Virus record (IMG/VR): IMGVR_UViG_3300006752_000023
Direction: 5' to 3' (one strand)
Origin: an uncultured virus (IMG/VR IMGVR_UViG_3300006752_000023)
Taxonomy: Duplodnaviria; Heunggongvirae; Uroviricota; Caudoviricetes
DNA length: 20,000 nt
Shown here in pieces: positions 5,977 to 6,897 of the stretch. Position 1 is the stretch's first letter. Every line of letters begins with the position of its first letter. The notes below the pieces were generated by a model. That model was not told the origin of the DNA and did not search any database. It saw nothing but the letters and a program-made list of their open reading frames with translations. A program made the position numbers and the translations under genes.

Positions 5977-6507
5977 TTAGTTTGCAACTTCAATCGTATA
6001 GAACAGATACTTAAATGTCACTGTTGCTGTAAAGTATGTATAATCAGTATCTGTGGCAGTAAAATCTAAAGAACTTAGTGAGACTGGGAATAAATCTCTA
6101 AATTTTATTCTTGCACTTACATTAAAATTACTGTTTAGGATCGCAAGAGTTCCATCACTAAATTGTTCTTTAACATCTTTAGATCCATCTGCAGCAGTAA
6201 TAAGTTGTTGAAACTCATTAACACTTTCTGGATACCCAAGACCATAGATCCAGTTATGAATCTCTAGATAATTTTCTAAATCCTCATCTACAATAAACTG
6301 CAGAGTGAGATCTTCAAATTGAATATTATCACCAGGAAGATCAATAGCCTTCAGGTAGTTTCCAACCTTTATATTCCCTAATTGGATACCAGGAATCTTT
6401 GTACTATTAGAAAAGAAATCTACTTTGGGAGTTTTTACAATATTGAATTTAAATCCTGTAGGCGACAAATAATTCTTGTTTGTTATCTGCTTGCTAAGGA
6501 ATGTCAT
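5977..6507 (-). CDS. g3: Tail completion / sheath stabilizer gp3
   Basis: NYLSPTGFKF, FIVDEDLENYLEIHNWI and FRDLFPVSLSSLDF; synteny. Confidence 0.9.
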   Translation of the reverse strand: MTFLSKQITNKNYLSPTGFKFNIVKTPKVDFFSNSTKIPGIQLGNIKVGNYLKAIDLPGDNIQFEDLTLQFIVDEDLENYLEIHNWIYGLGYPESVNEFQQLITAADGSKDVKEQFSDGTLAILNSNFNVSARIKFRDLFPVSLSSLDFTATDTDYTYFTATVTFKYLFYTIEVAN

Positions 6508-6516
6508 TTTTATTTT

Positions 6517-6523
6517 TATTTAG
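6517..6523 (-). promoter_or_regulatory. T4-type late promoter (CTAAATA) for g3
   Basis: CTAAATA directly after the terminator U-tract and 9 nt before the g3 ATG. Confidence 0.7.
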
Positions 6524-6525
6524 AC

Positions 6526-6552
6526 AAAAAAAGAGACCCTTTCGGGTCTCTC
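6526..6552 (-). terminator. Rho-independent terminator
   Basis: GAGACCC-GAAA-GGGTCTC followed by T7 on the minus strand. Confidence 0.9.
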
Positions 6553-6569
6553 ACTTCCTTCACACGGAA
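6526..6569 (-). ncRNA. Candidate ~45-nt sRNA (or structured 3'UTR) carrying GUGUGAAGGAAGU
   Basis: Lies between TTGTAA-16-(TGa)TATAAT (6602-6575) and the terminator; near-complementary to the Yfr1 motif ACUCCUCACAC. Confidence 0.35.
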
Positions 6570-6580
6570 ATTATATTATA

Positions 6581-6757
6581 TCACATAAGGACTTCCTTAC
6601 AAATTCTTTTGCATTCTGGAGCACTTAGTGAACTGCATTCAATTAGACACTCATAATAATCATTTAATCTTTCTTGTTCCTCTACGGCGAAATCGTCAAC
6701 TGGGGTTTCTGTAATTTTCCATTCGTTAAGTTGAGCCATTGATAGTAGATTGTGCAT
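6581..6757 (-). CDS. Small protein (58 aa) with two CxxxC motifs; missed by the ORF track
   Basis: MHNLLSMAQLNEWKITETPVDDFAVEEQERLNDYYECLIECSSLSAPECKRICKEVLM, with an AAGGTG RBS, an upstream late promoter and a downstream terminator. Confidence 0.8.
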   Translation of the reverse strand: MHNLLSMAQLNEWKITETPVDDFAVEEQERLNDYYECLIECSSLSAPECKRICKEVLM

Positions 6758-6871: not shown

Positions 6872-6897
6872 AAAAAAAAGACCCTTGCGGGTCTCTT
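6872..6897 (-). terminator. Rho-independent terminator
   Basis: AGACCC-GCAA-GGGTCT followed by a T-run, right after the stop of ORF 6900-7232. Confidence 0.9.

Follow-up and report, generated by a model that had tools for sequence, protein, structure and literature searches.

A putative small RNA gene of marine T4-like cyanophages with perfect complementarity to the anticodon arm of host tRNA-Val(CAC)

The element and its locus

The stretch of DNA analyzed here (the window) comprises 20,000 nucleotides (nt) of an uncultured virus of the Caudoviricetes (IMG/VR record IMGVR_UViG_3300006752_000023). It belongs to a T4-like cyanomyovirus; its distant matches are Synechococcus and Prochlorococcus myoviruses, and the phage collection contained no record near-identical to it. 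Our subject is a short element on the minus strand, between the major capsid gene and gp3. As judged by sequence comparison, it is real, widespread and without annotation in the phage records examined. We read it as a single-copy gene for a small RNA (sRNA) of about 43–45 nt, directed by the phage against tRNA-Val(CAC) and carried by one group among the marine T4-like cyanophages. We would give this reading a probability of roughly one half.

The predicted gene has a simple layout (all features lie on the minus strand). A −35-like hexamer, TTGTAA (6602–6597), is separated by a 16-nt spacer from an extended −10 box, TGaTATAAT (6583–6575), which a second TATAAT (6575–6570) overlaps. The original prediction had described a sigma70-like promoter here, and a consensus scan lists it with 10 of 12 matches and the TG present. 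The stretch between the second TATAAT and the hairpin reads UCCGUGUGAAGGAAGUG. The conserved 15-mer CCGTGTGAAGGAAGT occupies 6567–6553 and is the same in all copies; the extended −10 ends 7 nt before it. Transcription is predicted to start near 6568, at or one base before CCGUGUG and about 7 nt past the −10 box. The 5′ seed UUCCGUGUGAAGGAAGUG (6569–6552) is 18 nt long and is a perfect antisense of nt 25–42 of tRNA-Val(CAC) of Synechococcus WH7803. It is followed by the hairpin GAGAGACCC-GAAA-GGGUCUCUU (6552–6531), a GC-rich stem of nine pairs that would serve both as the stem of an intrinsic terminator and as the body of the RNA. A U tract (6530–6524), evident in the sequence and from the terminator scan, would form the RNA 3′ end.

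The strong terminator postulated earlier is indeed present. The consensus scan lists it with a stem of nine pairs, including five GC pairs, that carries a GAAA loop and has a U run behind it, and the energy of the hairpin is −15.3 kcal/mol; a GC-rich hairpin followed by a U run is what an intrinsic terminator consists of. The fold of the whole element (−21.3 kcal/mol, z = −4.1) was more stable than that of any of 200 shuffled sequences, and at most three seed bases are paired in the minimum-free-energy fold. Promoter-like sites are a different matter. The window has 65 of them against 56 ± 7.4 expected, so that a single promoter match is insignificant alone and the case rests on comparison with other phages.

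The gene of the major capsid protein gp23 (8818–7373), identified from the list of open reading frames (ORFs) and from annotated relatives, lies farthest upstream. It is followed by a 110-residue ORF (7232–6900) and by a 58-residue ORF (6757–6581) that annotated relatives identify as phrog_665, a homolog of Syn9 gp134. The −35-like hexamer lies inside the coding sequence of the latter, as its Cys-Lys codons, and the last codons, ATG TGA, provide the TG of the extended −10, TGA being the stop. It is the conserved C-terminus of this ORF (..ICKxxLM stop; 6602–6581) that encodes the hexamer. Where the module stands directly behind gp23, the ..NLM stop of gp23 supplies the TG of the −10 box likewise. 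Two further strong terminators, at 6897–6876 and 7326–7304, follow the 110-residue ORF and gp23, respectively. The first of these, AAGAGACCCGCAAGGGTCTTTT, is a near-copy of the element's hairpin about 350 nt off and has no seed motif ahead of it.

Downstream, outside the RNA, the end of the unit is marked by CTAAATA (6523–6517), which we take to be the cyanophage late-promoter motif and which would here serve gp3. The annotated gp3 gene (tail completion or tail tube-type protein; 6507–5977) is the downstream neighbor, and beyond it annotated relatives place uvsY and then the uvsW helicase gene. It had been suggested as an alternative that the element attenuates read-through into gp3. This idea finds no support, because the late-promoter-like box stands behind the terminator and because no alternative structure was seen.

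The original prediction saw no ORF in the RNA, and the relatives agree. Among 62 of them, a GTG-started frame runs for anything from 4 to 45 codons, and the downstream TAA falls into the three frames 27, 23 and 12 times; neither the frame preference nor the constant length of a small protein was found. A mini-ORF (MKEV...) that runs through the hairpin seemed to be in frame in the first four phages and was ruled out on the same 62 relatives. A Shine-Dalgarno-like reading of AAGGAAGUG, by comparison with the 16S 3′ end, was set aside as there is no start codon at a usable distance. We also rejected the idea of an anticodon-stem-loop mimic, with a UUCC/GGAA hairpin and a GUG "anticodon", since the 5′ arm is unconserved (T or A at position −1, variable farther up).

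Conservation and genomic contexts

The exact 15-mer is present in at least 120 IMG/VR viral contigs. It also occurs in the reference phages Syn9 (between gp134 and gp135), Syn19, Syn33, S-RIM2 and S-PRM1. In S-RIM2, Syn33 and S-PRM1 it stands just ahead of a terminator, the stem sequences differing, and in S-PRM1 the element is directly behind gp23. S-SM2 has a shifted variant, AGGTGTGAAGGAAGTGCG, behind a TTGACA-17-TAATAT promoter. Each of nine records searched, three of them virus genomes estimated to be 99–100% complete, holds one exact copy, and the window itself has a single copy within three mismatches.

Comparison with the flanks across cyanomyophages had been proposed as a check. In near relatives, identity in the flanking coding DNA goes down to 52–68%, while the motif is identical at 15 of 15 positions and the hairpin at 23–30 of 30. 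The matches listed include 63 distinct motif-plus-hairpin versions, or 62 after removal of one coding hit; when 48 versions were aligned, the 15 motif columns were the only invariant ones. Ahead of the motif, partial conservation (T or A) is confined to the first base. The hairpin was judged from per-sequence folds, as the MAFFT alignment puts the stems out of register. Thus, the 15–17 nt at the start of the predicted transcript do not change, whereas the flanks and the hairpin sequence vary, a pattern that supports the independent RNA of about 43–45 nt envisaged originally. The same comparison backs its proposed boundaries, with initiation near 6568 and a 3′ end formed by the terminator.

We then surveyed the settings of the motif, which amount to 106 unique contexts among the matches listed. 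In 42 of these, a sigma70-type −10 box precedes the motif and a hairpin with a U tract follows it; in another 19, the motif is preceded at 5–7 nt by a late-type NTAAATA box and again followed by a hairpin and U tract. In ten contexts the hairpin lacks a U tract and a tRNA gene, mostly tRNA-Gly(tcc), lies 18–33 nt past the motif; most of the ten have a TTGACA-17-TATACT promoter. In another eight, a tRNA-Thr(tgt) or tRNA-Asn(gtt) gene ends right where the motif begins. About 11 have neither promoter nor hairpin and look like chance matches in coding DNA or tRNA-Val genes, and the rest are mixed. The −10 box ends 6–8 nt ahead of the motif in 49 of the 56 listed contexts of the sigma70 type. In all the arrangements with a promoter or an adjoining tRNA gene, the RNA would begin with the motif, its 5′ end arising from initiation or from processing of the tRNA 3′ end, and motif plus hairpin would be freed by termination or RNase P. 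The element thus appears to behave as a small RNA gene and not as a mere terminator. It has what a 5′-seed sRNA is expected to have, namely its own promoter at a fixed distance, a conserved unpaired seed and a terminator hairpin. Overall, the sRNA reading is supported by the comparison with other phages.

Some contexts depart from this scheme. Contigs L048 and L081 have a TTGACA-17-TATACT promoter and the seed, followed by a longer shared sequence instead of a simple hairpin. Contig L036 shares the ORF, promoter, seed and hairpin with the window and has a downstream gene unrelated to that at 6300–6507 (55/139 identity), which places the module at a gene-replacement junction.

Searches with our covariance model (R1) returned only plain terminators in P-SSM2, P-SSM7, P-RSM4, S-PM2, S-SSM7 and S-RSM4, and nothing in P-SSM4, P-HM1 and P-HM2. 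Rfam at gathering thresholds gave no hit in the window.

Complementarity to tRNA-Val(CAC)

What could the invariant seed pair with? A scan of bacteria, represented by one genome per species, returned at least 119 loci with the 15-mer. Of the 119 listed, 75 represent the antisense strand of a complete tRNA-Val(cac) gene and three that of such a gene truncated at a contig end, the remaining 41 being scattered; the matches include Synechococcus WH7803 and other marine Synechococcus. In WH7803 the tRNA anticodon arm is the single exact site of the seed; by simple arithmetic, chance would place a given 15-mer 0.005 times in a genome of 2.4 Mb. On the tRNA, the region to which the seed is antisense comprises positions 25/26 and, in the anticodon arm, the loop together with the 5′ strand of the stem. 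The perfect duplex between the seed and nt 25–42 has an energy of −32.7 kcal/mol, which none of 5000 seed shuffles reached (best, −24.1 kcal/mol). For the phage RNA and the tRNA together, the computed net gain is −17.5 kcal/mol, a value that leaves out tertiary structure and modifications.

We also compared WH7803 tRNA-Val(CAC) by BLAST with 15 reference phage genomes. Antisense matches span tRNA nt 24–40 in Syn9, 25–43 in S-PRM1, 24–42 in Syn19, 24–39 in both Syn33 and S-RIM2, and 22–37 in S-SM2. In addition, S-RSM4, which does not have the window motif, carries a different 16-mer antisense to nt 33–48 on the strand of its tRNA-Gly gene (NC_013085, 29609–29624; locus L348). A near-match to Val(GAC) antisense in P-SSM2 falls in coding sequence and was discarded.

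The S-RSM4 sequence represents a second type of element, the one in the window being the first. Its 16-mer occurs at 46 viral loci (the IMG/VR loci being L362–L407), which correspond to 38 unique contexts. In 29 of the 38 it lies directly behind a wcaG RNA (RF01761, 90–92 bits) and about 90 nt before tRNA-Gly(tcc). The stretch between the 16-mer and tRNA-Gly is conserved too. A third type was found in a 60,780-base IMG/VR contig (L366), where an antisense copy of approximately nt 32–71 stands behind tRNA-Leu(taa) and tRNA-Thr(tgt). This copy is without five T-loop bases and is followed by a terminator and a TATAAATA box.

Types 2 and 3 resemble the window element in that they are perfectly antisense to the same tRNA, overlap it in CCGUGUG and lie in phage tRNA-Thr/tRNA-Gly neighborhoods. 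They differ in covering nt 33–48 or about 32–71, compared with 25–42 for the window seed, and type 2 is inside a longer transcript instead of at a 5′ end. The only sequence that all three have in common is CCGUGUG, the antisense of C34–G40, that is, of the anticodon and its 3′ neighbors. Different pieces of one tRNA, presented in different architectures, argue that selection sees the tRNA, not Yfr1 or Yfr2, the host sRNAs considered below.

Proposed action and phage–host distribution

From the directly supported features of the element (anatomy, conservation, single copy, alternative contexts, perfect complementarity and the different antisense pieces in other phages) we infer that the RNA is made and that it binds the tRNA in the cell, with consequences for translation. 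In the proposed mechanism, transcription would start about 7 nt past the extended −10 box and end at the hairpin and U tract, giving an RNA that consists of a single-stranded 5′ seed of 16–18 nt and one stable hairpin. This RNA would pair with tRNA-Val(CAC) or its precursor, beginning at the 7-nt anticodon loop and then invading the stem. The paired tRNA might be masked or marked for cleavage.

tRNA-Val(CAC) is the isoacceptor that reads only GUG. This codon makes up 22 of the 363 Val codons (6%) in 17 window ORFs, and a 60-kb sample of WH7803, with 43 crude ORFs, gives 483 of 1114 (43%); loss of the tRNA would thus hurt host translation far more than that of the phage. Element-bearing phages that we checked carry tRNA-Val(tac), namely S-PRM1 and contigs L004, L005 and L080, and Syn9 is recorded as carrying it in Table 1 of PMC11726456. 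A narrow tRNA-Val(UAC) pattern matched 3 of the 15 reference genomes but missed the known gene of Syn9. A broader and more speculative proposal, which we regard as possible though on balance doubtful, goes further. Cyanophages may have evolved, in at least three architectures, anti-tRNA small RNAs that pair with the anticodon arm of the host GUG-specific tRNA-Val(CAC) and so put it out of use. GUG-rich host messages would be starved and GUG-poor phage messages, served by tRNA-Val(UAC), would continue, amounting to an RNA-based, codon-selective host shut-off.

The distribution of the element is in keeping with such a target. An element of type 1 or 2 is present in seven of nine reference phages isolated on Synechococcus, as opposed to none of six isolated on Prochlorococcus (Fisher p = 0.007, uncorrected for relatedness). 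Among 201 genomes of the GTDB family of WH7803, 122 have the exact tRNA arm; it is present in 108 of 117 genomes of at least 2.0 Mb and in 14 of 84 smaller ones. In all five small genomes inspected (35–41% GC in sampled loci) the best tRNA matches were Val(gac) and Val(tac), with no Val(cac).

Several points weigh against directing the element at tRNA-Val(CAC). Mature tRNA is folded and modified, with only the 7-nt loop freely accessible, so a duplex of 16–18 bp would require the anticodon stem to open. tRNAs are abundant, and stoichiometric masking would thus need a very strong promoter. As to distribution, the comparison of phages and hosts rests on 15 related genomes, the division of host genomes by size was tallied by hand, and the small low-GC genomes are presumed Prochlorococcus-like from size and GC only. 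S-PM2 and S-SSM7 are without any element and their hosts should have tRNA-Val(CAC), from which it follows that the element is optional. Finally, the seed is similar to the start of host Yfr2, as CGUGUGA-GGA-GUG carrying two additional A, and a role directed at Yfr1 or Yfr10 therefore keeps some probability.

Other explanations

We weighed four other explanations, taken here in falling order of probability. The first, which we consider unlikely, is that the RNA is an ordinary base-pairing sRNA that uses a short section of the seed to act on mRNAs of the host or the phage, the tRNA match reflecting its birth from a tRNA-Val fragment in a phage tRNA cluster. The arrangement of a 5′ seed followed by a terminator is the classical layout of seed-type sRNAs, and in many contigs the element does lie in or beside phage tRNA clusters. 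Against this, WH7803 has three sites at up to two mismatches, compared with five for the reversed-pattern control; exact sites number one versus none, and that one is the tRNA. The phage genomes searched contain no second copy of the seed and no complement of it. Moreover, a relic would not hold 15–17 nt invariant, nor would it arise three times from different parts of one tRNA.

The second explanation, also improbable in our judgement, is a cis-acting cassette, a terminator insulating the gp23 operon combined with a promoter, in which the 15-mer would be an initial-transcribed or 3′-end stabilizing element. The placement, between the major capsid operon and a late promoter, would suit such a role, as would the differing downstream gene of L036, reminiscent of a shuffling junction. 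Cassettes of this kind, the PeSLs (promoter/stem-loop cassettes) of T4-type phages, are documented (PMC2839356, PMC4122927). They share with the window element the occurrence in T4-like phages, a sigma70-type promoter with a GC stem-loop terminator, the intergenic location and the position at borders of variable genes. As described, PeSLs differ in densely filling hyperplastic regions, in being conserved in promoter and stem, in usually having the stem-loop within or before the promoter, and in driving a downstream ORF with a Shine-Dalgarno site. The window element, by contrast, occurs once, as it does in each of the nine records searched; its conserved part is the 15–17 nt transcript start, and it serves no ORF, a terminator and a separate CTAAATA standing between its promoter and gp3. 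In addition, a cassette would hardly account for the motif with a hairpin lacking a U tract ahead of tRNA genes, or for its promoterless occurrence directly after tRNA 3′ ends, and it leaves the exact complementarity to tRNA-Val unexplained.

The third explanation concerns the cyanobacterial sRNAs Yfr1 and Yfr2. The original prediction took the seed to be a near-complement of Yfr1 with two bulged A. Using the real WH7803 Yfr1 (Rfam, 71.6 bits), we recovered this pairing as described: the seed pairs with the Yfr1 motif ACUCCUCACAC only with two single-A bulges, forming 6 + 3 + 2 = 11 pairs at −15.7 kcal/mol. The duplex is uncommon among shuffled seeds, 0.64% of 5000 reaching that energy, but it does not stand out in the window, where 45 of 39,964 18-mers, at about ten places, pair with Yfr1 equally well or better. 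Yfr1 has a better partner in the host itself. WH7803 Yfr2 (Cyano-1, 52.8 bits) starts with AUUCGUGUGAGGAGUG, a perfect complement of the Yfr1 motif at −23.3 kcal/mol. With two bulges, a duplex 7.6 kcal/mol weaker than that of the Yfr2 5′ end and nothing exceptional within the window, the view of Yfr1 as the best partner is not upheld. At the WH7803 loci concerned (L260, 1497–1566; L257, 1481–1537), the Yfr2 5′ end complements the Yfr1 motif perfectly over 11 nt.

The Yfr2 start AUUCGUGUGAGGAGUG equals the phage seed minus two A and, like the seed, stands at the extreme 5′ end of its RNA. One could then suppose that the phage RNA copies the Yfr2 motif and, as a Yfr2 mimic or a decoy for Yfr1 and Yfr10, titrates those sRNAs during infection. 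This has a host precedent, since Lambrecht 2019 (PMC6778093) reports binding of Yfr2 to Yfr1 and Yfr10, both of which it counteracts, and relief of Yfr1 repression. The two RNAs are also close in predicted net gain with Yfr1, at −10.5 kcal/mol for the phage RNA versus −11.7 kcal/mol for Yfr2. Yet the bulged A are kept in every copy even though the perfect complement binds better; their invariance fits a partner that pairs with them, namely tRNA-Val(CAC). The Yfr1 motif is itself the tRNA-Val(CAC) stretch ACUUCCUUCACAC minus two U. The Cyano-1 covariance model (gathering threshold, 41 bits) recovered the two WH7803 copies at 52.8 and 47.9 bits and left the window below threshold, and a permissive Rfam search (E up to 10) of 6450–6650 gave nine insignificant hits, none of them to Cyano-1 or a Yfr family. 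Yfr1 and Yfr2 are near-universal in cyanobacteria according to PMC6778093, yet all six Prochlorococcus-isolated phages are without the element. Furthermore, types 2 and 3 share the tRNA and not the Yfr2 motif. On these comparisons Yfr1 is displaced as the target by tRNA-Val(CAC), and we see a Yfr2 mimic as having little likelihood.

The last explanation, an att-like site or recombination target that copies the host tRNA-Val anticodon-arm DNA, is very improbable: truncated 3′ parts of tRNA-Val(CAC) that end at the same boundary (..AAGGAAGT) in L121, L370 and L380 do look like attachment remnants, but in the element conservation is limited to one of the two arms of the anticodon-stem palindrome, nothing else of the tRNA 3′ half is present, and the orientation is always co-directional with the promoter or tRNA operon, the hairpin always coming after. 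Identity covers nt 25–42 only, whereas a tRNA attachment site would have a block reaching the tRNA 3′ end or both palindrome arms, and to our knowledge T4-like cyanophages do not integrate. Six viral contigs in all (L121, L370, L380, L381, L363 and L392) contain a tRNA-Val(CAC) gene reduced to its 3′ part, which in three of them breaks off at the start of the anticodon stem, and they resemble attachment-site remnants of elements integrating into that gene.

Significance and relation to known systems

In the searchable literature we found no paper with the motif, nor one with the idea of a phage small RNA aimed at a tRNA. Two cyanophage genome papers name only CfrI, PhotoRC-II, wcaG, manA, glnA and abiF as cyanophage non-coding RNAs. 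Few phage-encoded small RNAs are known. If the anti-tRNA reading is correct, a virus would control host translation at the level of codons by means of an RNA of 45 nt, tRNA would become a new class of sRNA target, and the tRNA-Val(UAC) genes in these phages would be easier to explain. As the element is abundant in ocean viromes and present in Syn9, a phage used as a laboratory model, the idea is directly testable. Even if the link to the tRNA fails, the element is among the most conserved non-coding elements of marine cyanomyoviruses.

Among host RNAs the closest likeness is to Yfr2/Cyano-1 (RF01701). Each is a short RNA that opens, at its extreme 5′ end, with a conserved single-stranded motif; the motifs are nearly identical (CGUGUGAGGAGUG versus CGUGUGAAGGAAGUG), and both RNAs end in an intrinsic terminator. 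The phage seed differs by its two extra A, which make it an imperfect complement of Yfr1. The phage-encoded RNA is also half the size, has neither the first stem-loop nor its conserved loop, and does not match the covariance model.

The layout is shared with seed-plus-terminator sRNAs and with prophage-encoded sponges of sRNAs, such as the 5′ domain of RybB and AgvB/AsxR of enterohemorrhagic Escherichia coli prophages. In these, too, a short conserved seed that is at the 5′ end or single-stranded is followed by a terminator hairpin, and RNAs encoded by mobile elements rewire host RNA networks. Their partners, however, are mRNAs or sRNAs, while the predicted partner of the window RNA is a tRNA. 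We know of no such sRNA that targets a tRNA anticodon arm.

Watson–Crick pairing with a specific cellular tRNA is known from T-box leaders, large cis structures that pair with 3–4 nt of the anticodon and with the CCA end, and from retroviral primer-binding sites, which pair with the tRNA 3′ end. The window element would differ from both in being a 45-nt RNA that acts in trans and covers 16–18 nt of the anticodon arm.

In its supposed effect, the element comes closest to an event of T-even infection. On infection with T2 or T4, E. coli tRNA-Leu1, the reader of CUG, is reported to be cleaved. In that event, as in the reading proposed here, a T4-type phage would remove the isoacceptor for a G-ending codon that the host uses often and the phage seldom. 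A 2021 study by Yang is said to hold that host tRNA degradation drives phage tRNA genes. In the T-even phages the agent is a protein nuclease; here, we propose that it is an antisense RNA.

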